Below are positions 699 through 59,728 of a stretch of DNA of 64,000 bases, piece by piece. Where the stretch lies: positions 32,500 through 96,499 of the forward strand of contig CAYPLB010000004.1 in NCBI GenBank assembly GCA_964411565.1, written 5' to 3'. Below the pieces are notes generated by a model. The model did no database searches and was not told where the DNA came from. It was given only the letters and a program-made list of their open reading frames with translations. This DNA is from Candidatus Woesearchaeota archaeon (GTDB lineage: Archaea > Nanobdellota > Nanobdellia > SCGC-AAA011-G17 > GW2011-AR17). The position numbers and the translations under genes are program-made. Every line of letters starts with the position of its first letter. Position 1 is the stretch's first letter.

Positions 699-2429
699 AT
701 GGAGTATCTAAAATTAGCAAAGTTGTATGAAGAGATTGAAAACACTTCTAAGAGAATAAAAAAAACAGAAATATTGTCAAATTTTTTAGAAAAAGTTAAG
801 AAAGAAGATTTGAAAGATGTTGTTTATTTGTTACAAGGAAGAGTTTTTCCGCAATGGGATGAGAAGAAAATAGGGATGAGTTCTAAGTTATTAGTAAAAG
901 TTATTGAGAAAGCTAGTGGAGAAAGTACAAAAAAAATTGATGCTATGTGGAATCAAGAAGGTGATCTTGGTTTAGTAGCTGAAAAATTAATGGTTAATAA
1001 AAAACAAAATACTTTGTTTAGTAAGAAATTAAATTTAAAGAAAGTAATTGACAATATTTCTAAATTAACCGAAATGGAAGGTGAAGGTACAGTAAATAGA
1101 AAAGTTGGTTTGGTAGCTGAATTATTAAGTTCTGCAAGTGCATTAGAAGCAAAATATATTGTGAGAACAGTTACTGAAACTTTAAGGAGTGGAATTGGAG
1201 ATAGTTTAGTAAGAGATACTTTAGTGTGGACTTATTATGAAGGAGCAAAAGAAATTATTATTGAGGATAAGGATAGAGAAGAGTTTAAAATTTATGTAAA
1301 AGAAGTGCAAGCAGCATTTGATGTTACAAGCGATTGGGGAGAAATTGCTATTACATTAAAAGAAAATGGAAGAAAAGGAATTGAAGAATTATCATTGAAA
1401 GTTGGAAAACCAATAAAAGTTATGCTTTATCCAAAGGCAAAAGATATCGAAGAAGCTTTTGAAACTGTTGGAAAGCCTGCAATGATTGAAGCAAAAATAG
1501 ATGGGTTTAGAGTACAAATTCATAGAGATAAAGATGAAGTTAAATTATTTACAAGAAGATTAGAAAATGTTAGTAAACAATTTCCAGATGTTATAAAAAT
1601 TGTAAAAGATTATGTTAGGTCAAAAAATGTTATATTAGATACAGAAGTTGTTGGTATTGATAAGGATACTAAAAGACCTGTACCATTTCAAAAAATTTCT
1701 CAAAGAATTAGAAGAAAATATGATATAGAAAAGTTAGCTAAGGAATTACCAGTTGTTGTAAATGTGTTTGATGTAATAGAATTAAATGGAGAAAGCATGT
1801 TGGAAAAACCTTTAGAAGAAAGGAAAAAGAAATTAAAAGCAGTTGTGAAAAATGAAGAAAATAAAATTGAAATTTTAGAACATATACTAACTTCAGATTT
1901 AAAGAAAGCTAAAAAATATTATTTAGAATGTTTGGATAAAGGATTTGAAGGAGTGATGATGAAAAGTGTTGAAGGAATGTATAAACCAGGAAAGAGAGTA
2001 GGACAAGGAGTAAAAGTTAAACCTGTAATGGAACCTTTAGATTTAGTAATTGTTGAAGCAGAATGGGGTGAAGGAAAAAGAGCAAAGTGGTTGAGTAGTT
2101 TTACAGTAGCTTGTAGAGATGGAGATAAATTTTTAGAAATAGGAAAAGTAGGAACAGGAATAAAAGAAAAAAGTGAAGAGGGAGTTAGCTTTGAAGAATT
2201 AACTAATGAGTTGAAAAAAATAATAATATCAGAAAAAAAACGAAGTGTTAAAGTAAAACCAAAGGTTATTTTGGAAATTATTTATGAAGAAATACAAAAA
2301 TCTCCAAGTTATTCTTCTGGATTTGCTCTAAGATTTCCAAGAGTTCATATGTTGAGAGAAGATAAGGATATCGACGAGATTTCTACTTTAGGTGAAGTTA
2401 AAAAATTCTATAAAGATCAAAAAAAATGA
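699..2429 (+). CDS. lig: ATP-dependent DNA ligase
   Basis: KxDG motif (EAKIDGFRVQIH), EGVMMK, K-VGTG and ALRFPR motifs; N-terminal DNA-binding domain. Confidence 0.97.
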   Translation: MEYLKLAKLYEEIENTSKRIKKTEILSNFLEKVKKEDLKDVVYLLQGRVFPQWDEKKIGMSSKLLVKVIEKASGESTKKIDAMWNQEGDLGLVAEKLMVNKKQNTLFSKKLNLKKVIDNISKLTEMEGEGTVNRKVGLVAELLSSASALEAKYIVRTVTETLRSGIGDSLVRDTLVWTYYEGAKEIIIEDKDREEFKIYVKEVQAAFDVTSDWGEIAITLKENGRKGIEELSLKVGKPIKVMLYPKAKDIEEAFETVGKPAMIEAKIDGFRVQIHRDKDEVKLFTRRLENVSKQFPDVIKIVKDYVRSKNVILDTEVVGIDKDTKRPVPFQKISQRIRRKYDIEKLAKELPVVVNVFDVIELNGESMLEKPLEERKKKLKAVVKNEENKIEILEHILTSDLKKAKKYYLECLDKGFEGVMMKSVEGMYKPGKRVGQGVKVKPVMEPLDLVIVEAEWGEGKRAKWLSSFTVACRDGDKFLEIGKVGTGIKEKSEEGVSFEELTNELKKIIISEKKRSVKVKPKVILEIIYEEIQKSPSYSSGFALRFPRVHMLREDKDIDEISTLGEVKKFYKDQKK

Positions 2430-4464: not shown

Positions 4465-5037
4465 TCAAGGTTTTATAGATGGTTTAAAAAGGTTTTGTTC
4501 AAGCCTAAAAAATTCTTTTTCATACCCAGCTGGAAATGTAACATAAATCTTAGTTTTCAAATTAGTACCTTTCAAATATCTTAAAGCCCTTAACTTTTCA
4601 AGTTGCATAGCATCTTTACCAACTAATGCTGTGTAAATATGAATATCATTTAAAGTGTCTGACCTATGGGCTTTTTTTGAAGGATAAATATTTATCATGA
4701 AAGAATGACATTCCCCAAAATGAAGATTTTGACCTCTAATAGCATCAAGTAAATCAGAATATAAATATGGCAATTTTTCTAAATCTTCAAAAAATAAATT
4801 TACAGTTTCATAAGGAGTATAATCTTCTAAGTTTTCTTCTTTCTTAGAAAATAATCTTGAAAATAAACCTCTTTTCTCTGGTATTTTATGGATTATTGTT
4901 CCTGAAAAAATAAATCTTAAGGATTTTATTTTCTTTTCTTCTCTTAACTGTAATAAAAATAGATAAATTCTTTCTGCTATTGTATCAAAGTCTGTATTCT
5001 TGTAAACAATAGTATCTACTTCCTTAAGCTTAGCCAT
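4465..5037 (-). CDS. Hypothetical protein (paralog of 5075..5692)
   Basis: 190-aa ORF; shares motifs with its neighbour (see findings). Confidence 0.75.
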   Translation of the reverse strand: MAKLKEVDTIVYKNTDFDTIAERIYLFLLQLREEKKIKSLRFIFSGTIIHKIPEKRGLFSRLFSKKEENLEDYTPYETVNLFFEDLEKLPYLYSDLLDAIRGQNLHFGECHSFMINIYPSKKAHRSDTLNDIHIYTALVGKDAMQLEKLRALRYLKGTNLKTKIYVTFPAGYEKEFFRLEQNLFKPSIKP

Positions 5038-5074: not shown

Positions 5075-5692
5075 TTAAGCTACATCTTTATCAATTAAAG
5101 GATATAATAATAAGTTTTGAGTTGGTTCATCAATACTAATGTAAACAATTACATTACCATTAGATAATTTGTTACCTTCTAAATCTTTATAATGAGCTAA
5201 ATTAGATAAACCCTGAGCAGCTATTGAAGTAGTTATGTAAATTCTAATACTTTTTTTTCTTCTATATCTTTCATAATAAGATTTAAGGTCATTAGGAGTT
5301 TGATCTGTTAAATTAAAGGATACTGCAAAGTAAACTTCATGACAGTCACCAAAAGAAGGATTTGAAGATTTTGCAGCATTTAAGTGAGTAGTATAATCAA
5401 AATCTTTTAATTGTACTGAACCCATAGGAGAAATAACATAATCATATTTTTCATAACCTTTAGGAGCATTACCTTTAACTTTTGATTTTCCTAATAAGTT
5501 TGAAAAAAAACCTTTTTTTCGGTAATAGTTATATTTAGGATTTTTTGTAGTTCCATACAAAGTTATTTTTATGTCATTAATTGTCAATCTTTGTTCTGAA
5601 GTTAAGTAATTAATATATTCTTTTACTTCTTTGTATGCTTGAGAATCACAAATATTATCAAAATTTCCATTTGCAATAATTTTGTGTTCCAT
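5075..5692 (-). CDS. Hypothetical protein (paralog of 4465..5037)
   Basis: 205-aa ORF with TATA-like element upstream. Confidence 0.75.
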   Translation of the reverse strand: MEHKIIANGNFDNICDSQAYKEVKEYINYLTSEQRLTINDIKITLYGTTKNPKYNYYRKKGFFSNLLGKSKVKGNAPKGYEKYDYVISPMGSVQLKDFDYTTHLNAAKSSNPSFGDCHEVYFAVSFNLTDQTPNDLKSYYERYRRKKSIRIYITTSIAAQGLSNLAHYKDLEGNKLSNGNVIVYISIDEPTQNLLLYPLIDKDVA

Positions 5693-5728
5693 AAATGAAT
5701 ATGAAGCTAGAAGATTAATAAAGTTTTC

Positions 5729-6466
5729 TTATATTAATGGCCTTAAAACAAAATAAGGATAATCCTTTATTGAATCTATTTTATCTGAAACAATAACAGC
5801 TTCTGGATTCTCAGGCATTTTTTCAAGTTCTTTTATTCTAAAACCATATTCATACTCTTTTAATTTTGAATAGCCAATATCTTTTTCTTTGTAAACATCT
5901 AAAGAACAACCTCGCTTTAAAATTCTTAATCCTGCTTCAATAGAATCTTTATTTTGAAGTAAAAGAATTACATTTGAATCTGAGCCAACAGGTAAACCAC
6001 CAGCACCTTGATTAGTTTCTGTGTATAAATATGCAAAGTGATTAAATAATTCAACATTAATTTTGGTTTCTGGATTTTTTATATCAACAGGTGCATTTGT
6101 TTTTTCAATAATATAAGCACCAATCTCTGCAGCAAGTTCCATTGAATTTTTTAGAACTTTATCTGATCTTTTTACGAAAACTTTGAAAGTTCCTTTCTTG
6201 TAAAGTTTTAATGCTTCTTCCTTTATAGTTTGTAAATCTTGAGAATATCTTTTTGCATATGAAAAAGAAGCTATACCAAATACATTTTTTAATTGAGGAC
6301 ATTCTTTATCAGTATAAATCAATATTCTCCCTCTCATTCTTCTAACTTTTTCAAAAGGAATATTATTTCGCTTAATACAATCTTTAATATTTTCTCTTAA
6401 TTTTCTCTCAAAATCTACCCTATTCTTACCTTTGATTGCAATTTCAGCATATTTTACTATGATCAT
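5729..6466 (-). CDS. thiI: ThiI-like N-terminal half: NFLD/THUMP domain plus degenerate PP-loop remnant
   Basis: IVKYAEIAIKGKNRVDFERKLRENI, TFKVFVKR, GAGGLPVGS; SGGIDS replaced by QNKDS. Confidence 0.8.
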   Translation of the reverse strand: MIIVKYAEIAIKGKNRVDFERKLRENIKDCIKRNNIPFEKVRRMRGRILIYTDKECPQLKNVFGIASFSYAKRYSQDLQTIKEEALKLYKKGTFKVFVKRSDKVLKNSMELAAEIGAYIIEKTNAPVDIKNPETKINVELFNHFAYLYTETNQGAGGLPVGSDSNVILLLQNKDSIEAGLRILKRGCSLDVYKEKDIGYSKLKEYEYGFRIKELEKMPENPEAVIVSDKIDSIKDYPYFVLRPLI

Positions 6467-12363: not shown

Positions 12364-12483
12364 TTTTTTCACCTCGTATATTCTAGTTATATAAACTAGT
12401 AAACATATATAGCCCTTGTTAGTATTTAAACTTTATGTTTTCTCGAGGGAAATCTTATATATTTCAAGAACTTGAGAGTTGTT

Positions 12484-13245
12484 ATGTGGGTACATGATTT
12501 GAATCCAGTCTTGTTAAATTTGGGAGGATTGGAGATAAGATACTATGGATTAGTATATGTAATTGGATTTATTTTGAGCATAGTTTGGTTAATGTTTTAT
12601 CGTCGAGAAATAGACTTAAAAAAAGATGAAGTTTATGACTTTGTTTTTTATTTGATGTTAGGTGTAATTGTAGGATCTAGATTGTTCCATGTTGTATTTT
12701 GGGAGCCTAATTATTATTTGTTGGAACCTTGGAAAATATTTTTTCTTTGGGAAGGAGGAATGGCTTACCATGGAGGTTTAGTTGGAGTTGTCGTTGCTGC
12801 TTATTGGTATTGTAAAAATAAAAAAATAAGTTTTTTGAAAGTTGCAGATATTCTAACAGTTCCTGGAATCTTAGCTTTAGGTTTAGGAAGATTAGCCAAT
12901 TTTGTTAATGGAGAGTTAGTAGGCAGAGTAACTGAAGTTGCTTGGTGTGTGGATTTTGGAGATGAGTCTTGTAGACATCCTTATGTTATTTATAGTGCTT
13001 TGAAAAGGTTTGCTATAGGAGGATTTTTGTGGAGTTTATCGTCAATAAAGTTTAAAGAAGGACTTATATTTTGGAGTGGAATTTTGTTGATGGGAATAGG
13101 TAGATTTGTCCTAGATTTCTATAGAGAAGATATATTATATTGGAGTTTTAGTGTTGGACAGTGGATGTCTTTAGCAATGATTATTGTTTCTTTGTTTGTT
13201 TTAGTAAAGAATTATAGCAAGAGTATGAGAAAAATATTTAAATGA
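12484..13245 (+). CDS. lgt: Prolipoprotein diacylglyceryl transferase
   Basis: IRYYG, GSRLFHV, WEGGMAYHGG, GRLANFVNGELVGR, RHP, GRFVLDFYR. Confidence 0.9.
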   Translation: MWVHDLNPVLLNLGGLEIRYYGLVYVIGFILSIVWLMFYRREIDLKKDEVYDFVFYLMLGVIVGSRLFHVVFWEPNYYLLEPWKIFFLWEGGMAYHGGLVGVVVAAYWYCKNKKISFLKVADILTVPGILALGLGRLANFVNGELVGRVTEVAWCVDFGDESCRHPYVIYSALKRFAIGGFLWSLSSIKFKEGLIFWSGILLMGIGRFVLDFYREDILYWSFSVGQWMSLAMIIVSLFVLVKNYSKSMRKIFK

Positions 13246-19220: not shown

Positions 19221-19551
19221 TAGTACCTCGATTAAAAGTAATTACTTATAAGCTTTATGGAAAGACTGTATGTATATAGTATTCTATTTATTTATAAATG
19301 AAAATGAACTAATGTTCTCTAAGGTGGTAAAAAGAGGATGCAACACCTCACCTCCATTATACTGATGAAGGTTCAAGTCAATCTCCCCTTGGCTTGGACC
19401 TGATTATTTCTTTATGGAAAATTTTCAGAAAAATTGAAAAAATTTCAGAAACTCTTAGGAAGCTATTATTAAGTTTGAAATAAGTTATTAGATATGAAAT
19501 TCTGAACGAAACAAAAGTTTTTTAAATAAAACAAATAAATTGTAATGCAAT

Positions 19552-19751
19552 GCGGGGGTAGCAAAGTCTGGTCAAATGAAATCAAGGTTTTGGTTTCAGA
19601 CTATATGCGCAGGTAACTTGCACAAAGTACTTGTAGGTTTGCGAAACTTAAGACCAGAGTCTCATCTGAGATAGATTACATATGGATGTAATCAAATCGT
19701 AAGATATCCTGTCTCTTAGTGAGTTCGAGGGTTCAAATCCCTTCCCTCGCA
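19552..19751 (+). tRNA. tRNA-Leu(UAA) with three introns (21/22: 19576-19604; 30/31: 19614-19645; 37/38: 19653-19705)
   Basis: Removing the three introns gives GCGGGGG/CCCTCGC acceptor stem, GCA/TGC D stem, CAGGA-CTTAAGA-TCCTG anticodon arm, long variable arm and GAGGG-TTCAAAT-CCCTT T arm; each intron has a 4-bp central helix between 3-nt bulges. Confidence 0.9.
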
Positions 19752-19803
19752 TTTTTTATTTTTTCAAAACTCTTAAAAAGAGTTAATTTTCTTTTTATAC
19801 AAT

Positions 19804-20465: not shown

Positions 20466-20556
20466 GCCCCAGTGGCTTAGCCTGGTATAGCACAGAAGAA
20501 ATTCGCTAAGTTGCTTGGTAAGCAAGAGATCCCGTGTTCAAATCACGGCTGGGGCT
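20466..20556 (+). tRNA. tRNA-Thr(GGU) with 17-nt intron at 27/28 (20494-20510)
   Basis: GCCCCAG/CTGGGGC acceptor stem; after splicing CTTGC-TTGGTAA-GCAAG; BHB central helix TAGC/GCTA, intron hairpin GAA-GAAA-TTC. Confidence 0.92.
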
Positions 20557-21446: not shown

Positions 21447-21893
21447 ATGAAATGTCCATACTGCGCAAGCCCAGAAATCAAAGTTCTAGACAAAAGGAAT
21501 ACTGAAGAAGGGAAATCAATAAGAAGGCGAAGAGAGTGTTTGGGCTGTAACAAAAGATTTACAACATATGAAAGAGTTGAAGAATTTCCTGTTTATGTTA
21601 TAAAAAGAGATGGAAGAAAAGAACCCTTTTGTAGAGTTAAACTCAAAGAAGGTTTTGTAAGAGCCTTCGAAAAAAGACCAGTGACAATGGAAGTAATAGA
21701 TAATATTGTTGATGGATTACAGAGAAAAGTAAGAAACTATAAAGTAAATGAAATTGAAAGTAAAGTGTTGGGGAAATGGGTCTTAAGTTTGTTGAAAAAA
21801 ACTGATAAAATTGCTTATATCAGGTATGCTTCAATACACAAAGATATTGGAGATATACAAGAACTTGAAGCCGAAATACAAAAAATAATTTAG
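21447..21893 (+). CDS. nrdR: Transcriptional repressor NrdR
   Basis: MKCPYC...IRRRRECLGCNKRFTTYE Zn ribbon, ATP cone (VIKRDGRKEPF), AYIRYAS. Confidence 0.95.
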   Translation: MKCPYCASPEIKVLDKRNTEEGKSIRRRRECLGCNKRFTTYERVEEFPVYVIKRDGRKEPFCRVKLKEGFVRAFEKRPVTMEVIDNIVDGLQRKVRNYKVNEIESKVLGKWVLSLLKKTDKIAYIRYASIHKDIGDIQELEAEIQKII

Positions 21894-21903
21894 GGGAGTA
21901 AAA

Positions 21904-24900
21904 ATGGTATCACATGTAAAAAAAAGAGATGGAAGTATTATTCTTTTTAACAAAGAAAGAATAGCAGAAGCAATATTCAGTGCTATGAAAGCAACTGGAG
22001 TAGGCAATAAAGAAATGGCAAAAGAACTTGCACAGAAAGTTGCAAGAATAGTAGAAGAAAGAAATCCTTATCAAATTCCTTCAGTCGAAGATATTCAAGA
22101 TTGTATTGAAGATGTGTTAATAAAAGAAGGTGAACAAGGAATAGCAAAAGCCTTTATTATTTATAGAGAAAATAGAAGAAGAGAAAGAGAAAGTAAGAAA
22201 GTTCTTCTAGATGTTGAAGGTACTATGAAAGAATATCTTGATCAAATTGATTGGAGAGTAAATGAAAATAGTAATGTTGGTTTTTCTCTTGGTGGTTTGA
22301 TTTTATATATATCTGGAAAAATTACAGCTAATTATTGGTTGAATAATATTTATCCTGCTGAAATAAAAAATGCACATGTTAATGGAGATTTTCACTTACA
22401 TGATTTGAGTATGTTTAGCGGATATTCATTTTATAGAAATGAAGTTATTGTAGTTAGAGATAAGAAAACAAAAAGTCCATTAGTATTAAGTTTTGAACAA
22501 TTATATAAGTTAACTCAATCTAAAGTTGATCATGAAAATGGGTTTGAGATTAAGTATACAAATGAATATGAGATATTTGATGAAAAAGGTTGGACAGATC
22601 TTAAAAGAGTTCTTAGACATAAAACAACAAAACCATTAATTTCATTGAACACTTTTAATGGGAAAAACTTAGTTGTGACAAATGATCATCCTTTTATTAC
22701 ATTAGAAGATGAAAAACAAATTATTTCCTGTCCTGGATGTGAAGGAAATAATGTTATAAAGAATAGAACAAATAAAATTGGAAAAGATTATTTTAAGTGT
22801 AAATCTTGTGAACAAAGGTTTGGTTTAGATAAAGAAACTTTGCCAAATTTGAGTAAAAGAAAAGAGATAAAAGCAGAGGAAGTAAAATTAACTAACTATG
22901 CATTAACTCCTGCATTTGAAATTGAACAAAATTTTAAAGATAATTTAAGTGTAGAAGATGGATGGTTTGTAGGACTTTTTATTGCTGAAGGATATTTTAA
23001 AGATAAAAATTTAGTTTTTGAAATGTCAGATAGTAGAGAATTTAGAAAGTTAGTGAATTATTTAGTTTATTCTGAAGTAGATTTTAACTTGAATAGTAAT
23101 AAAAGTAATTCAGGAATGCAAATGATTCAAGAAGGGAATAATATCTTGTACATAAAAACTATTTCTTTATCTGAAGAGTTACAAGAGATAATATCACAAA
23201 TAAGACCTTATGCATATAATAAAAATTTGCCAATGAATATGTTAAGTATTAAGTCAGAAGTTATCGGAGCAATGATCTCAGGAGTAATTGACGGAGATGG
23301 AGTAATTAGAAATGATGACCCATGGGTTTCAAGAGCTAATTTAAGGATGACTTCAAAAACTCTTTTAAGTCAAATTCAATTTTGGTTAGAATTAGAAGGA
23401 ATAAATTCTTCTTTGTTAACTATTGATGGATATGGAGAAAGAGAATATAAAGGACTAATAATAAAACCAAGTAAACAACTATATTCATTAACATTCTATA
23501 TTCCTGAAAGAAAAAAGAAATTATTTACAGAATGTTTGAAGATAGATAGTAGTTTTAAATATTCTAAAAGAGATTCATATAAACTTAAATCTCATTCACA
23601 TTTTAGAAAGATTGAAGCTATCGAAAATGATGATGAATATGTCTATGATATTACAACTGAAACAAGAACTTTTAATTGTAATGGAATGTTAGCTCATAAT
23701 TGTGCGGGCTGGTCATTAAGACAACTCTTAGAAGAAGGTTTTGGAGGAGTTTATGGAAAATTACAAACAAAACAACCAAAACATTTTGATACAGTAATTG
23801 GACAAATGGTTAACTTCTTAGGTACTATGCAGAATGAATGGGCAGGAGCACAAGCTTTGTCATCTGTTGATACTTATCTTGCTCCTTATGTAAGAGTAGA
23901 TAATATGACTTACAAACAAGTTAAACAACAAATGCAAAGACTGCTTTTTAACATAGCTACACCTAGTAGATGGGGAACACAAACACCATTTATTAATTTT
24001 ACATTTGATTGGACAGTTCCTGAAGATATGAGAGAAGAAAAAGTAATAATTGCTGGACAAAGACAAGAATCAAAATATAAAGATTATCAAAAAGAAATGG
24101 ATATGATCAATAGAGCTTTTATGGAATGTATGATGGAAGGAGATGCTGATGGAAGAATATTTACATTCCCAATTCCTACATATAACATTACAAAAGATTT
24201 TGATTGGGATAGTGAAAATTCAAACATGTTATTTGAAATGACATCAAAATATGGTATCCCTTATTTCCAAAATTTTGTTAATAGTGAATTGAAACCGACA
24301 GATGTAAGAAGTATGTGTTGTAGATTGCAATTAGATGTTAGAGAACTGAGAAATAAAACTGGAGGATTGTTTGGTTCAGGAGAAAATACAGGATCTATTG
24401 GAGTTGTTACAATTAATCTTCCAAGATTAGGAGAAGTAAGCAAAAGTAGAGAAGAATTCTTTAGAAGATTAGGAATACTTATGGATATGGGGAAAAATTC
24501 TTTAGAAATTAAAAGAAAAGTTGTTACAAGATATATGGAATATGGATTGTTGCCATTCACAAAAAGATATCTAGAAAACTTAGACCACCATTTTTCAACA
24601 ATAGGATTAATTGGAATGAATGAATGTTGTTTGAATTTCTTGAAAAAAGATATGATTGAAAAAGAAGGAAGAGATTTTGCAATTGAAGTCTTAGATTTTA
24701 TGAGATCAAAATTACAACAATACCAAGAAGAAACTGGACATATTTACAATTTAGAAGCTACCCCAGGAGAAGGTACTAGTTATAGATTAGCTAGAATCGA
24801 TAAGATGAAATATCCAAATATTATTACAGCTGGAGATGAAGAACCATATTATACAAATAGTTCACAACTTCCAGTAAATGCAACAGATGATATTTTTGAA

Positions 24901-25164
24901 GCATTGGATAGCCAAGAAGAATTACAATGTAAGTATACTGGTGGAACAGTATTTCATTGTTTTATTGGAGAAAAAATAGATGATGTAGAAGCGTGTAAAA
25001 AATTAGTTAAGAGGATTGCACATACATATAGAATCCCTTACTATACAATAACTCCAACATTTAGTATTTGTCCAGAACATGGATACATTGCAGGAGAACA
25101 TCATGAATGTCCTTATGAAGCAGTTGTTAAAGTAAAAGGAGGTGAAAAAAATGAGCAAATGTGA
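21904..25164 (+). CDS. nrdD: Class III anaerobic ribonucleotide reductase large chain (ATP cone, intein-containing, lacks glycyl-radical C-terminus)
   Basis: VKKRDG ATP cone, HLHDL..GY|CAGWSL, QNEWAGAQA, RSMCCRL, GSIGVVTINL, EATPGE, YTGGT, TPTFSICPEHG. Confidence 0.93.
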   Translation: MVSHVKKRDGSIILFNKERIAEAIFSAMKATGVGNKEMAKELAQKVARIVEERNPYQIPSVEDIQDCIEDVLIKEGEQGIAKAFIIYRENRRRERESKKVLLDVEGTMKEYLDQIDWRVNENSNVGFSLGGLILYISGKITANYWLNNIYPAEIKNAHVNGDFHLHDLSMFSGYSFYRNEVIVVRDKKTKSPLVLSFEQLYKLTQSKVDHENGFEIKYTNEYEIFDEKGWTDLKRVLRHKTTKPLISLNTFNGKNLVVTNDHPFITLEDEKQIISCPGCEGNNVIKNRTNKIGKDYFKCKSCEQRFGLDKETLPNLSKRKEIKAEEVKLTNYALTPAFEIEQNFKDNLSVEDGWFVGLFIAEGYFKDKNLVFEMSDSREFRKLVNYLVYSEVDFNLNSNKSNSGMQMIQEGNNILYIKTISLSEELQEIISQIRPYAYNKNLPMNMLSIKSEVIGAMISGVIDGDGVIRNDDPWVSRANLRMTSKTLLSQIQFWLELEGINSSLLTIDGYGEREYKGLIIKPSKQLYSLTFYIPERKKKLFTECLKIDSSFKYSKRDSYKLKSHSHFRKIEAIENDDEYVYDITTETRTFNCNGMLAHNCAGWSLRQLLEEGFGGVYGKLQTKQPKHFDTVIGQMVNFLGTMQNEWAGAQALSSVDTYLAPYVRVDNMTYKQVKQQMQRLLFNIATPSRWGTQTPFINFTFDWTVPEDMREEKVIIAGQRQESKYKDYQKEMDMINRAFMECMMEGDADGRIFTFPIPTYNITKDFDWDSENSNMLFEMTSKYGIPYFQNFVNSELKPTDVRSMCCRLQLDVRELRNKTGGLFGSGENTGSIGVVTINLPRLGEVSKSREEFFRRLGILMDMGKNSLEIKRKVVTRYMEYGLLPFTKRYLENLDHHFSTIGLIGMNECCLNFLKKDMIEKEGRDFAIEVLDFMRSKLQQYQEETGHIYNLEATPGEGTSYRLARIDKMKYPNIITAGDEEPYYTNSSQLPVNATDDIFEALDSQEELQCKYTGGTVFHCFIGEKIDDVEACKKLVKRIAHTYRIPYYTITPTFSICPEHGYIAGEHHECPYEAVVKVKGGEKNEQM
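22426..23700 (+). mobile_element. Intein (425 aa) with LAGLIDADG endonuclease in NrdD
   Basis: Begins S (SFYRNEV), block B VTNDHPF, LAGLIDADG-like WFVGLFIAEG and MISGVIDGDG, ends VYDITT...GMLAHN, then extein Cys. Confidence 0.92.
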
Positions 25165-30275: not shown

Positions 30276-30368
30276 AATTTTGAATTTTATGAAAGACTAT
30301 TTAAACTTTTGCTTGTATCAAACAAGAATATTGACTTTATCCTTAAGGAAATTTAATATGATTATAAA

Positions 30369-30452
30369 TGCACGAGACAGGTTTCGAACCTGCGTAGGCA
30401 CTAAGCCACTGGATTTTGAGTCCAGCCCGTTTGACCACTCCGGCACTCGCGC
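30369..30452 (-). tRNA. tRNA-Leu(CAA), intronless
   Basis: Reverse complement GCGCGAG...CTGGA-CTCAAAA-TCCAG, long variable arm, GGTTCGAAACC, CTCGTGCA. Confidence 0.95.
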
Positions 30453-30493
30453 ATAATATAGCAAGAGAAATAATTACTATTTATAAGAATTTC

Positions 30494-43100: not shown

Positions 43101-43164
43101 AATTTTAGTCCGGACAGGACATAGGGCCGTGAGCCTTTTAAAAGAAAAATAATAAGAAATAAAG

Positions 43165-53440: not shown

Positions 53441-54253
53441 TTAGTCATAAGAAAATTTACGATAAACAGTGTTTGTAGGTAATTTTTCATCTGTAGCAAT
53501 TAAAGCATTTCTTCCAGCATTCTTTGCAACATAAAGATTATTATCTGCTTTAGCTAATAAATTATCAATTTGCTCTTTAGATTTGTCAAGATTAAGATCT
53601 GATGGAATGAACCAATATAAACCAGCACTAAAACTAATATTCTTTACATCAGGAACAGAATATTTCCAAGATAAAGAATCTTCATTAATGTCTTGACCAA
53701 ATTGATGAATTCTTTCAATAGAACCAATGAAAGTTGGATCATATAAACCTAAAACAAATTCTTCACCACCAAATCTAGCTACCAAGTCTGAATCTCTAAG
53801 TCTTTTTCTAAAAAAATCTCCAAACTGAATTAAAGCTTCGTCACCAACTTTGTGACCATAAGTATCATTGAAAAATTTAAAATGATCAATATCAAGAAAA
53901 GTTAAAGCCATAGGAGATTTTTTTCTTAAAGCAATTGATAATAAAGATTCCATTTGTTGATAAAAACCTCTTCTGTTAGGAAGTCCAGTTAATTCATCAA
54001 TAGTTGAAGTTATTCTTAGTCTATCAATTTGTTCTTGCATCTTTTTATGTTCTAAATTTCTTTTTTCATTTAAAGCAAGTAATAAATCAAAATTTGAAGG
54101 ATCTCTTTGCTCTAGAATAGTAGAACAAGTTAAATCTAAAAATAGAGGTAAAGAATCAGGATCAATACCCTCTGAAATAGCATCAAAAGTTTCTATACTA
54201 GGGTCTTCTAAAAATACATTTAAATAAGCTCCTAGTTCAATTCTTGGTGTCAT
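53441..54253 (-). CDS. GGDEF-domain diguanylate cyclase
   Basis: DELTGLPNRR, DIDHFKFFNDTYGHKVGD, RDSD I-site, RFGGEEF, ADNNLYVAKNAGRN. Confidence 0.93.
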   Translation of the reverse strand: MTPRIELGAYLNVFLEDPSIETFDAISEGIDPDSLPLFLDLTCSTILEQRDPSNFDLLLALNEKRNLEHKKMQEQIDRLRITSTIDELTGLPNRRGFYQQMESLLSIALRKKSPMALTFLDIDHFKFFNDTYGHKVGDEALIQFGDFFRKRLRDSDLVARFGGEEFVLGLYDPTFIGSIERIHQFGQDINEDSLSWKYSVPDVKNISFSAGLYWFIPSDLNLDKSKEQIDNLLAKADNNLYVAKNAGRNALIATDEKLPTNTVYRKFSYD

Positions 54254-54387
54254 CTTAATCTTGGAAACTAAAGGATTTATTTATAAAAGTTTCTATTAGA
54301 AAATATATGAAATTTATCAGGAAATTCAGTGTGGACAGGACAAGGGTGCGCGTGAAGTTTAAATAGGTAAAAATTAATTTATAATTA

Positions 54388-55800
54388 ATGAGAAAAAAAT
54401 CAATAATATCAATAAAAGAAGAAGATTATATAATCAAAGTTAATCAAAATTTTCTCAATAATTTAATTGAATCTGCAATAGCAAAAACAGGTAAAGTTTC
54501 AAAATTAAGTGAAATATTGATAAAAATATATAAACTTAAGAGATATGATCAAAAAAGTTTGTCAGATAATTTAAGAAAATGGCAAAAAAATAGAGATATA
54601 GGCTTAAATTATTATTTGGTAATTGGAGATTTTCTTCAGGAAGAGAAAAATAAGTTATATTCAAAGATTAATTATGTTAAATTAAGACAAACTAGAAATG
54701 GCTTAAAATTAAAATTTCCTTTTGAAATTACTCCTGATTGGTGTTATTTATCTGAAGCTATAAAAGTTGAAGGCACATTAAATCGAAAAAGAGTAATATT
54801 TGAGAATACTGATACAGCATTAACTAAGAAAGTAAAAGAAAAATTGATTAATATAGGGATTGAAAAAGAAAAAATAAGAGAAAGTTTACATATCCGAATT
54901 CAAGTTCCAAAAAAATTTGAAGATAAAAATTTAAAAATTTTTAATGAGATTAATAAAAAAAAGGTAAATAATTTTTATTCTCGAATATTAAAGTTAAAAA
55001 GAGGAAATAAAAAATCAATTATTTTTTCTTTAAGTCATTTTGAGTATAATAAAAAATTAACTTTTAAGGTTTATCATAAAAATAAGTTTTTACTTCAAAA
55101 TGATATATTTATTCCAAAACAAGGGAAAATATTGTTTTTCAACTCTCTAAAAGATGAGAGATATAAGAAAGGATGTGTATCATTAAGGATAGAAGTTGGA
55201 AATAAAACATTATCTTATATTTTGAATGATTTTTTTAAAATTCCTTATGGAAAGAAAACGAGATCAATATATATTCCAACAAAAATTAAAGAACTTAACA
55301 AAGATTGTCTTAGAAATTTAATTTCAATAGTTATTGATTCAGAAGCAGGATTTTCAAATAATATGGCTATTTGTTCTCTTAGTAAAAAATATCTTTTAGA
55401 TTTTCAAGAAATATTATTGAGATTCAATATTACTTCTAAAATTTCTGGAAACTTATTAAAGATTTATGGAAAGAGAAATTTAATCAAAATAAAAGAGAAT
55501 TTTGAGATTTTTTCAAAAAATAAGGCTGATAAATTAGAACAATTAATAGTAAAAGGAGATAAATCTCCTAAAGGAATGTCTTTGTCTTTATATTTGCAGA
55601 GTTTGAATAAACTAAAAGTTGCAACTTGGATAGAAATTAGAAATAATGCTAATAGATCAGGTAATAGTTCAAGAAAATATAGAGATAAACTCCTAGAAAA
55701 AAAGCTAATAAGAGAGGTAAAATTAAAAAGACCTAGGACTTATGAGATAACTAAGCAAGGACAAAACTTTTTAAATGAGAACGAAATTTACTGGTTATAA
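54388..55800 (+). CDS. Free-standing LAGLIDADG endonuclease-like protein with C-terminal wHTH
   Basis: YLSEAIKVEG and LISIVIDSEAG LAGLIDADG-like helices, IPYGKK, C-terminal YEITKQG wing; very Lys/Asn-rich. Confidence 0.7.
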   Translation: MRKKSIISIKEEDYIIKVNQNFLNNLIESAIAKTGKVSKLSEILIKIYKLKRYDQKSLSDNLRKWQKNRDIGLNYYLVIGDFLQEEKNKLYSKINYVKLRQTRNGLKLKFPFEITPDWCYLSEAIKVEGTLNRKRVIFENTDTALTKKVKEKLINIGIEKEKIRESLHIRIQVPKKFEDKNLKIFNEINKKKVNNFYSRILKLKRGNKKSIIFSLSHFEYNKKLTFKVYHKNKFLLQNDIFIPKQGKILFFNSLKDERYKKGCVSLRIEVGNKTLSYILNDFFKIPYGKKTRSIYIPTKIKELNKDCLRNLISIVIDSEAGFSNNMAICSLSKKYLLDFQEILLRFNITSKISGNLLKIYGKRNLIKIKENFEIFSKNKADKLEQLIVKGDKSPKGMSLSLYLQSLNKLKVATWIEIRNNANRSGNSSRKYRDKLLEKKLIREVKLKRPRTYEITKQGQNFLNENEIYWL

Positions 55801-58237: not shown

Positions 58238-59728
58238 ATGGCTGAAAAAACCAAAGAAAAACAGAAATTGAAAAGATTTGTTAGGAATCTTGAAAAGATT
58301 AGAGGTAGACATACTGAATTAGTTTCTGTTTATGTGCCAGCAGGTTATGATCTAAATAAAATTATTCAACATTTACAACAAGAACAAGGAACAGCTTCTA
58401 ATATTAAAGATAAAACAACTCAAACCCATGTTGTTGATTCGTTAGAAAAAATGATTAGACATTTGAGAACTTTTAAGAAAACTCCAAAAAATGGTTTAGC
58501 TCTTTTTTCAGGAAATGTTTCTGATAGAGAAGGAAAGACAGATATCCAAGTTTTTAGTATTGAGCCACCACAACCAATGAAAATGAGATTGTATAGGTGT
58601 GATCAAAGATTTGTTCTTGATGAATTAAAAGGAATGTTTGAAATTAAAGAATGTTATGGAATTATTGTACTTGATAAAAGAGATGCTGATGTAGGATTAC
58701 TAAAAGGAACAACTATTATTGAATTGAAAAGTATGCATTCAGCTGTACCTGGAAAAACTAAAGCTGGAGGACAATGTTTGCATCCAGAAAGTTCTGTACA
58801 TTTGGCTGATGGACAATATATTCCTATTGAAGAGATTCAAGAAGGAGATGAAGTTATAAGTTATGATTTTAATACACAAGAACTGAGTAGTTCAAAAGTT
58901 TTGAAGAAATGGGAAGAGAAAAAAAATAAGTTGTATAAAATTACAGCTGGAGAAAGTGTTATTGTTAGTTCAGGAGATCATATCTTTTTCTTAAGTGATA
59001 AAAAAGAAATTGCTGCTGAAGAATTAAAAGAAGGAATGGAATTGTTTAATGAAAAAGGTTTGGGTGTTGTTATTCAAAGTATTATTGTAGAAGAAAAAGA
59101 GATACCTTTAATTGATATTGAAGTTGAAAAAAAGAATTTTGTTGTTGAAGGAATTGTTGTTCATAATTCAGCTCAAAGGTTTGCAAGAATAAGAGAAGAA
59201 GCAGCAAAAGATTTTTTTGGAAGAGTTAGTGATGCAGCAAATAAAGCATTTTTAGGTCTGAAAGATATGAAAGGAATATTAGTTGGTGGACCAGGAATGA
59301 CAAAGAATACATTTGTTGATAAAGGACATCTTAATGAGCAATTAAAAAGAAAAGTAATTTCGGTACAAGATTTAAGTTATACTGGAAGTTTTGGAATGCA
59401 AGAATTAGTTGAGAAAAGTAGTGATATTTTAGCAGATGAAGCAATTGTTACAGAAAGAAAAATAATGTCAGAATTTTTTAGATTATTATCTCAAGAAGGA
59501 AATAAAGTTGCTTATGGTGAATCTGAAGTTGATAAGGCTCTAGAAATGGGAGCAGTTGATAAATTGTTGTTATCTGAATCTCTAGATGATGAAATGATTG
59601 AAAGATACGAAGATAAAGCAGAAGAGACTGGAGCTGAAGTTGTAATTGTTAGTACTGATACTTCAGAAGGTGCACAATTAAAAGATATTGGCAGAATTGC
59701 TGCTATTTTGAGATTTGCAATTAGTTAA
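58238..59728 (+). CDS. prf1: Archaeal peptide chain release factor 1, intein-containing
   Basis: RGRHTELVS, TASNIKD (NIKS-like), YRCD, GKTKAGGQ|SAQRF. Confidence 0.95.
   Translation: MAEKTKEKQKLKRFVRNLEKIRGRHTELVSVYVPAGYDLNKIIQHLQQEQGTASNIKDKTTQTHVVDSLEKMIRHLRTFKKTPKNGLALFSGNVSDREGKTDIQVFSIEPPQPMKMRLYRCDQRFVLDELKGMFEIKECYGIIVLDKRDADVGLLKGTTIIELKSMHSAVPGKTKAGGQCLHPESSVHLADGQYIPIEEIQEGDEVISYDFNTQELSSSKVLKKWEEKKNKLYKITAGESVIVSSGDHIFFLSDKKEIAAEELKEGMELFNEKGLGVVIQSIIVEEKEIPLIDIEVEKKNFVVEGIVVHNSAQRFARIREEAAKDFFGRVSDAANKAFLGLKDMKGILVGGPGMTKNTFVDKGHLNEQLKRKVISVQDLSYTGSFGMQELVEKSSDILADEAIVTERKIMSEFFRLLSQEGNKVAYGESEVDKALEMGAVDKLLLSESLDDEMIERYEDKAEETGAEVVIVSTDTSEGAQLKDIGRIAAILRFAIS
58775..59167 (+). 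mobile_element. Mini-intein (131 aa, no endonuclease) in aRF1
   Basis: CLHPESSVHLADG (block A), SGDHIF (block B), LIDIEV (block F), GIVVHN followed by Ser. Confidence 0.93.

Follow-up and report, generated by a model that had tools for sequence, protein, structure and literature searches.

A tRNA-Leu(UAA) gene with three predicted BHB introns in a marine DPANN archaeon, missed by ARAGORN and Rfam

Positions 19552–19751 (+) of the window, by which we mean the whole 64-kb stretch of DNA analysed here, hold a 200-nt tRNA-Leu(UAA) gene. We conclude, with a probability of about 0.92, that this gene is functional and carries three protein-spliced BHB introns, with intron 2 predicted to leave before intron 3. 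This reading draws on the anatomy of the sequence, the product spliced in silico, comparison with related loci and folding energetics; what it says about transcription, cleavage, ligation, the order of splicing in vivo and the type of EndA is predicted from these. A tRNA gene with three BHB introns is a type of gene that is already known, and the gene described here is a well-supported further case, in a DPANN lineage.

The exons measure 24, 9, 7 and 46 nt and the introns 29, 32 and 53 nt, with the introns at sites 21/22 (D-loop), 30/31 (anticodon stem) and 37/38 (the canonical site). Read in order along the plus strand, the gene comprises GCGGGGGTAGCAAAGTCTGGTCAA, 29 nt of intron, ATGCGCAGG, a further 32 nt, ACTTAAG, a further 53 nt, and ATCCTG...CCCTCGCA. 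Exon 1 (19552–19575, 24 nt, +) provides the 5′ strands of the acceptor stem and the D-stem and the D-loop up to position 21, and is identical to nt 1–24 of an intronless orthologue, L160. It is separated by intron 1 (19576–19604, 29 nt, +; site 21/22, of the HBh′ form) from exon 2 (19605–19613, 9 nt, +), which covers positions 22–30, that is, the 3′ strand of the D-stem, nt 26 and nt 27–30 of the anticodon stem. Intron 2 (19614–19645, 32 nt, +; site 30/31, again HBh′) leads to exon 3 (19646–19652, 7 nt, +), which covers positions 31–37 and has the anticodon TAA at 19649–19651. Intron 3 (19653–19705, 53 nt, +; canonical site 37/38, hBH) is followed by exon 4 (19706–19751, 46 nt, +), which holds nt 38, the 3′ strand of the anticodon stem, the long variable arm and the T-arm with its TTCAAAT loop, and which ends at 19751 with the 3′ strand of the acceptor stem and the discriminator A73; CCA is not encoded. 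Our re-derivation agrees with the first-pass annotation on the gene, the anticodon, the number, positions and lengths of the introns, and the sizes of the exons, including the internal exons of 9 and 7 nt. Given that all four exons are colinear within 200 nt, a split or permuted tRNA gene was ruled out.

A TATA-box-like element (TTTTAAATAA; 19520–19529, +) lies ~23–32 nt upstream of the gene start and is a candidate promoter. The orthologue in L254 has a similar A/T box at a similar upstream distance; the L069 orthologue has an A/T-rich box too, but farther upstream. At the other end, a T-rich tract (TTTTTTATTTTTT; 19752–19764, +) abuts A73 and likely acts as an archaeal transcription terminator. 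T-runs also close the tRNA-Leu orthologues in L069 and L067.

In all three introns the central helix is paired at 4/4 positions and flanked by 3-nt bulges, and both cuts would fall after the second bulge nucleotide (marked by an arrow below). The central helix of intron 1 is GGTC (19570–19573) with GACT (19599–19602), its bulges are AA↓A (19574–19576) and AT↓A (19603–19605), and its intron-side helix h′ has 9 bp, formed by TGAAATCAA (19577–19585) and TTGGTTTCA (19590–19598). For intron 2, the central helix is CGCA (19608–19611, tRNA nt 25–28) with TGCG (19640–19643), the bulges are GG↓T (19612–19614) and AA↓A (19644–19646), and the h′ helix has 8 bp, with AACTTGCA (19615–19622) paired to TGTAGGTT (19632–19639). 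The central helix of intron 3 is CTTA (19647–19650, nt 32–35) with TAAG (19700–19703), and the bulges are AG↓A (19651–19653) and AT↓A (19704–19706). The exon-side helix h of intron 3 is the anticodon stem itself, which is whole only when intron 2 is gone; its intron-side helix is weak, and its interior contains two hairpins, one of which is GATTACAT/ATGTAATC (19674–19693). These are the same three central helices and 3-nt bulges that had been proposed from a first look at the sequence. The accompanying description of the outer helices as relaxed fits the exon side of introns 1 and 2, where helix h is absent or weak, and the intron side of intron 3, but does not fit the intron side of introns 1 and 2, where the helices are strong at 9 and 8 bp.

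The three BHBs sit exactly at the sites whose removal restores the cloverleaf. Among random site pairs in the window, 2.9% have an in-register 4-bp helix, and only 0.02% combine this with an adjacent h′ of at least 6 bp. The G+C content is 52% in the exons and 34% in the introns, as compared with 28% in the window. The pre-tRNA fold has a z-score of −4.3, and none of 200 shuffled sequences folds equally well. We also checked intron 3 by eye for a C/D-box sRNA, a candidate that we rejected since no convincing C and D boxes were seen.

When the four exons are joined in silico, the resulting 86-nt sequence is identified by ARAGORN as tRNA-Leu(taa). The acceptor stem of the spliced 86-mer has 7 bp, one of which is G-U; the molecule further has G18G19, an anticodon stem CAGGA/TCCTG closing the loop CTTAAGA, T33, G37, a 15-nt variable region with a stem, the T-loop TTCAAAT and A73. 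On all the features read, it fits a class II tRNA-Leu. The unspliced gene was recognised neither by ARAGORN nor by Rfam, at the gathering threshold or at a permissive one; the expectation that standard tRNA finders would miss it thus holds for the two that we tried. The other tRNA-Leu of the window, which had been described as intronless, is found by ARAGORN without an intron: it is a tRNA-Leu(CAA) (30368–30453, −) that reads UUG. The L069 orthologue of this Leu(CAA) gene (5393–5532) aligns in two blocks with ~49 nt extra between them, which suggests an intron that is absent from the window gene.

For comparison with relatives, a scan of metagenome contigs with an exon-1 pattern yielded 120 loci, in which introns were placed by splice-aware alignment to the mature sequence, and every spliced product was validated by ARAGORN. 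A scan with a 3′-exon pattern was unspecific, returning mostly intronless tRNA-Leu genes of haloarchaea and methanogens, and gave L069, L067 and L054. L160 (397–482), which Rfam scores as a tRNA at 58.5 bits, is identical to the predicted product over nt 1–52, a stretch that spans all three junctions. L217, which is syntenic with the window at ~85% DNA identity, has no intron 1 at the predicted exon 1–exon 2 junction and keeps introns 2 and 3, and a Logan contig of run X8 (X8 contig 18) has the same form. Two more distant syntenic relatives are L254 (ABCE1 75% identical), with introns at 30/31 and 37/38 only, and L069 (ABCE1 62% identical), in which 21/22, 30/31 and 37/38 are all occupied.

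The introns of these relatives keep the central helix H and vary in h′. The 21/22 intron also occurs in L069 and L166, with the same H and with other h′ sequences that still pair. The 30/31 intron also occurs in L069, L189, L217, L234, L254 and L219, with h′ helices of 6–15 bp whose sequences are either unrelated or altered in a compensatory way; most have CGCA/TGCG as H, and L254 and L219 have CGCA/TGTG. In place of AACTTGCA/TGTAGGTT of the window, intron 2 has AGCTTGCA/TGTAGGCT in L254, a compensatory change, GATTTGTT/GACAAATC in L069 and GAGCTT/AAGCTC in L189. Taking the 21/22 and 30/31 introns together, the h′ sequence varies while pairing over 6–15 bp is found in 10/10 instances. The GATTACA hairpin of intron 3 is kept in L217 and L186 and is replaced in L254 by the compensatory GACTGCA/TGTAGTC. 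The 37/38 intron is present in 7/7 relatives that have a 30/31 intron. As judged by these alignments, conserved central helices and bulges combined with compensating changes in h′ are the pattern expected of a structure recognised by EndA, and not of decaying insertions.

We propose that a precursor of ~200 nt would be transcribed from the TATA-like promoter and ended at the T-run, that EndA would cut within both 3-nt bulges of each BHB, and that an RtcB-type ligase would join the exons. The product would be the 86-nt class II tRNA, in which UAA is the anticodon, position 37 is G, the variable arm is long and the discriminator is A73. Introns 1 and 2 are HBh′ substrates, strongly paired on the intron side but with no proper helix on the exon side, and this type would need an EndA of broad specificity; such an enzyme is to be expected from established knowledge of non-canonical introns.

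The order of splicing was addressed by constrained folding with nearest-neighbour energies. In the full precursor, forming the BHB costs +1.3 kcal/mol above the MFE for intron 1, +1.2 kcal/mol for intron 2 and +12.6 kcal/mol for intron 3. When intron 2 is removed, the cost is +1.2 kcal/mol for intron 1 and falls to +3.9 kcal/mol for intron 3, the BHB of which is now flanked by the anticodon stem; the base just past its 3′ bulge then pairs with the base that precedes its central helix. With introns 1 and 2 both removed, the intron 3 BHB still lies 8.2 kcal/mol above a competing fold. The central helix of intron 2 consists of tRNA nt 25–28 and its bulge of nt 29–30, and the 5′ strand of the anticodon stem needs the region of nt 27–30. 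Since nt 25–30 are taken up by this helix and bulge, the intron 2 BHB and the anticodon stem are mutually exclusive, and hence intron 2 likely precedes intron 3. The folding calculations suggest that intron 2 would have to leave before the intron 3 BHB can be recognised, and thus support the ordered splicing path that the first-pass annotation had anticipated; intron 1 would be removable at any time.

A gene for EndA or RtcB was found neither by a Pfam search of 50 window ORFs nor among Pfam matches in the 10 kb beyond each end. Neither gene came up in 1.8 Mb of the relatives' loci, where EndA was sought by tblastn with the M. jannaschii EndA, a query that agrees with PDB 1A79 along all 171 residues, and by a profile of five EndA sequences run on all ORFs. 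The sole tblastn match to EndA, in L145, proved to be a lysine-rich membrane protein.

Other readings of the locus have to be weighed against this one. The window corresponds to part of a marine metagenome contig from JGI, 147,824 bp in length, and with a metagenome assembly as the source, the locus might be an assembly artefact or a chimera. However, a 400-nt stretch with the tRNA-Leu locus recurs at 100% identity in at least eight contigs, which come from different samples and assemblers, and it is also present in Logan contigs from several runs, where depth is even across the gene, such that we regard the chance of an artefact as negligible. It could also be argued that the gene is a real interrupted tRNA-Leu with a different intron architecture, in which boundaries are shifted or some segments are removed by a mechanism that does not involve a BHB. 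Sliding the boundaries of intron 1 by 0 to +3 nt, or those of intron 3 by 0 to +1 nt, does indeed leave the product unchanged, and the unconstrained MFE fold lacks the exact BHB of intron 2. Intron 2 itself cannot slide, however, and the combination of a 4/4 central helix with 3-nt bulges occurs only in the registers given above; the boundaries quoted for introns 1 and 3 are those that the BHB rule picks among the sliding registers. In L217 and X8 contig 18, intron 1 is missing at exactly this junction of the product, and self-splicing as group I or group II introns was rejected because the window introns, at 29–53 nt, are far too small and matched no Rfam family even at E ≤ 1. We give a different architecture very little credence.

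A decaying pseudogene that has gathered three insertions, with decoding taken over by another, intact tRNA-Leu(UAA) copy elsewhere, would account for the failure of ARAGORN and Rfam to recognise the locus and for its zero coverage in metatranscriptomes. The latter is uninformative on expression: no sequence words of the locus occur in six metatranscriptome runs from the same studies, and the four that we mapped gave zero coverage. The genome has been seen in part, a second tRNA-Leu(UAA) having been sought in ~84 kb (the window and ~10 kb beyond each end), which leaves room for a copy elsewhere. In DNA samples where the population is abundant, on the other hand, we found no second copy or intron-free allele of tRNA-Leu(UAA). 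The other Leu(UAA) genes in those samples have different acceptor stems and depth ratios to the window population that range from 0.34 to 0.72, and on account of these stems and inconsistent ratios we assign them to co-occurring relatives. In 26 window ORFs, UUA accounts for 57% of the codons for Leu and for 5.4% of codons overall, and a pseudogene is unlikely given that this is the dominant Leu codon. Decay is also at odds with undamaged exons that match intronless orthologues exactly across the junctions, with a perfect BHB exactly in register in each insertion, with the same sites being filled, with compensatory helix changes, in syntenic relatives whose ABCE1 is 62–75% identical, and with the presence of a promoter-like box and a T-run. 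We consider a pseudogene very unlikely, and retain the reading of a functional gene with three BHB introns.

The genes around the locus are archaeal and include ABCE1/RLI, RNase P Rpp14, proteasome alpha, exosome, RpoK, aRF1 and deoxyhypusine synthase. The nearest named homologues of ABCE1 belong to Nanoarchaeota, Woesearchaeota and Nanoarchaeia archaea (70–73% identity), and we therefore take the host, which is marine and AT-rich (28% G+C), to be a DPANN archaeon of the Woesearchaeota/Nanoarchaeia group and not a member of the Thermoproteales or ARMAN groups. Whereas the Thermoproteales are hyperthermophilic crenarchaea, the three-intron gene described here is in an AT-rich, mesophilic marine host. 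The Thermoproteales enzyme is an (alpha-beta)2 EndA with the crenarchaeal loop. Similar intron sequences reportedly recur in different tRNAs of the Thermoproteales, as Fujishima is said to have described in 2010 and to have put down to transposition. Unlike these, the window introns show no recurring similarity within the 64-kb window: the three Leu introns and the intron of the tRNA-Thr gene described below resemble neither each other nor the rest of the window, and so give no sign of intron transposition.

In other respects the gene is of the kind described from Thermoproteales (Pyrobaculum, Thermofilum and Caldivirga), whose multi-intron tRNAs were reported by Sugahara et al. 2007/2008 and are reviewed in PMC4033280 and PMC8450103. 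As in those genes, there are up to three BHB introns per gene, the sites lie in the D-arm and anticodon stem, the motifs are relaxed (HBh′ and hBH), and introns are so close that one must go before the next BHB forms (PMC8450103). Multi-intron tRNA genes are known mainly from Thermoproteales, with cases in N. equitans, M. kandleri, Korarchaeum and ARMAN-1/2 (PMC4033280, PMC8450103). The first-pass annotation had given a similar distribution for three-intron tRNAs, namely mainly Thermoproteales and some ARMAN; the host here, going by its ABCE1 homologues, is outside both named groups, and three-intron tRNAs are thereby extended to a mesophilic marine DPANN lineage.

According to the main text of Kaneta et al. 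2018 (PMC5829648), non-canonical introns are tied only to EndAs of the (alpha-beta)2, epsilon2 and DPANN alpha4 types, the last with an L3 loop; ARMAN-1/2 have the epsilon2 enzyme, and DPANN archaea the alpha4 enzyme with the L3 loop. The same text links extra-loop DPANN EndAs to more tRNA gene disruption, takes incomplete predicted DPANN tRNA sets to point to undetected disrupted genes, and gives proportions for one Woesearchaeota and one Pacearchaeota genome (PMC5829648). The window gene is from the same superphylum and, as set against that main text, is exactly such an undetected disrupted gene. An individual three-intron gene of this lineage is described neither in the main text of PMC5829648 nor in the literature that we searched. 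The gene decodes the most-used Leu codon of its organism and yet goes unseen by ARAGORN and Rfam; interrupted genes that finders do not see may explain part of the "missing tRNAs" of DPANN archaea, which bears on MAG quality scores. Its internal exons of 9 and 7 nt also make it a compact natural substrate for the study of EndA on adjacent, mutually exclusive BHBs.

Intron number varies widely in this lineage. Of 71 unique Leu(UAA) genes, 13, 41, 11, 4 and 2 have zero, one, two, three and four introns, respectively, with some of the two-intron calls doubtful (L191, L193 and L200). The two four-intron genes are at 1297–1515 (+) of L069, with BHB introns at 21/22, 30/31, 37/38 and 51/52, and at 885–1103 (+) of L220, with BHB introns at 37/38, in the variable arm, at 51/52 and at 58/59. 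Both have 4/4 central helices at every junction, and removal of the four introns leaves in each case a tRNA-Leu(taa) of 86 nt. Reviews and the tRNAscan-SE 2.0 paper put the ceiling for archaeal tRNA genes at three introns (PMC4033280, PMC8450103), which these two genes, as predicted from their sequences, exceed. Non-canonical tRNA-Leu introns in nine further loci (L166, L186, L234, L185, L229, L184, L246, L188 and L159) fall at a few recurring sites, namely the variable arm, the T-stem at 51/52 (or 52/53) and the T-loop at 58/59–59/60, most of them with 4/4 helices; the genes are mostly Leu(UAA), and that of L229 is Leu(CAA). In L184, L159 and L246, the next tRNA downstream also seems to be interrupted by insertions.

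The 30/31 site is occupied in L219 by a much larger intron. The tRNA-Leu(UAA) gene of this locus (5099–6013, −) is 915 nt long and has an 816-nt BHB intron at the position of window intron 2, with CGCA/TGTG as H and an h′ of 15 bp. The intron codes for a LAGLIDADG_3 protein of 270 aa (Pfam E 1.4e-6), whose ORF has the TAA anticodon of the tRNA as its stop codon. A group I reading of the 816-nt intron was rejected, as it has no Rfam match. Window intron 2, at 32 nt and with no ORF, shows no sequence similarity to the L219 intron. Archaeal rRNA BHB introns carry LAGLIDADG genes, for example those in Thermoproteales 16S/23S rRNA (PMC4496867, PMC6125680). The L219 intron is like these in having a LAGLIDADG ORF in the loop of a BHB intron, and unlike them in that the host gene is a tRNA. 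In the literature that we searched, we found no description of a BHB intron bearing a homing endonuclease in a tRNA gene.

Taken together, the four-intron genes and the L219 intron hint that homing plays a part in the gain of tRNA introns in this lineage, but they are no proof of it. A bolder idea, which we offer tentatively and think likelier to be wrong than right, is that Woesearchaeota/Nanoarchaeia-type DPANN archaea have undergone an undescribed burst of tRNA-intron proliferation, in which Leu(UAA) genes came to hold zero to four introns at recurring sites (21/22, 30/31, 37/38, variable arm, 51/52 and 58–60), with two relatives above the three-intron ceiling; the 30/31 intron might then derive from a mobile BHB intron that was spread by a LAGLIDADG protein and later lost its ORF. 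One review calls the mechanism of archaeal tRNA-intron gain still unknown (PMC4090602). If true, a LAGLIDADG homing origin of the 30/31 intron would supply such a mechanism, and the four-intron and homing-endonuclease relatives could make the question of tRNA-intron gain directly testable.

The window contains a second interrupted tRNA gene that both ARAGORN and Rfam missed, a tRNA-Thr(GGU) of 91 nt (20466–20556, +). Its 17-nt intron (AGAAGAAATTCGCTAAG; 20494–20510) lies near 27/28 at the top of the anticodon stem, in a BHB with TAGC/GCTA as H, the bulges AC↓A and AG↓T, and an h′ of 3 bp. With the intron removed, the remaining 74 nt are called tRNA-Thr(ggt) by ARAGORN. The syntenic tRNA-Thr orthologue in L254 (4603–4676) is intronless. 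ARAGORN also miscalled interrupted genes in relatives: the two-intron tRNA-Leu(UAA) of L254 (5320–5482, −) was reported as a tRNA-Tyr(gta) with a 69-nt intron, and a tRNA-Thr(GGU) of L256 interrupted in its D-loop (4781–4876, −) as a tRNA-Pro(cgg). Such miscalls are a risk for estimates of the tRNA complement in DPANN MAGs.

Elsewhere in the window, the NrdD (anaerobic ribonucleotide reductase) gene at 21904–25164 (+) includes an intein with a LAGLIDADG domain, and the gene for the peptide chain release factor aRF1 at 58238–59728 (+) has a HINT/intein insert. Several genes look bacterial, namely those for a GGDEF diguanylate cyclase (53441–54253, −), Lgt (prolipoprotein diacylglyceryl transferase; 12472–13245, +) and NrdR (21447–21893, +). 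Two G+C-rich intergenic islands, at ~43110–43137 and ~54333–54360, have a motif in common (GGACAGGACA.(A)GGG.GCG..TGA). The first is upstream of a gene for an Lhr-type helicase and the second upstream of a 470-aa ORF at 54388; they may mark a regulatory site or a small RNA.
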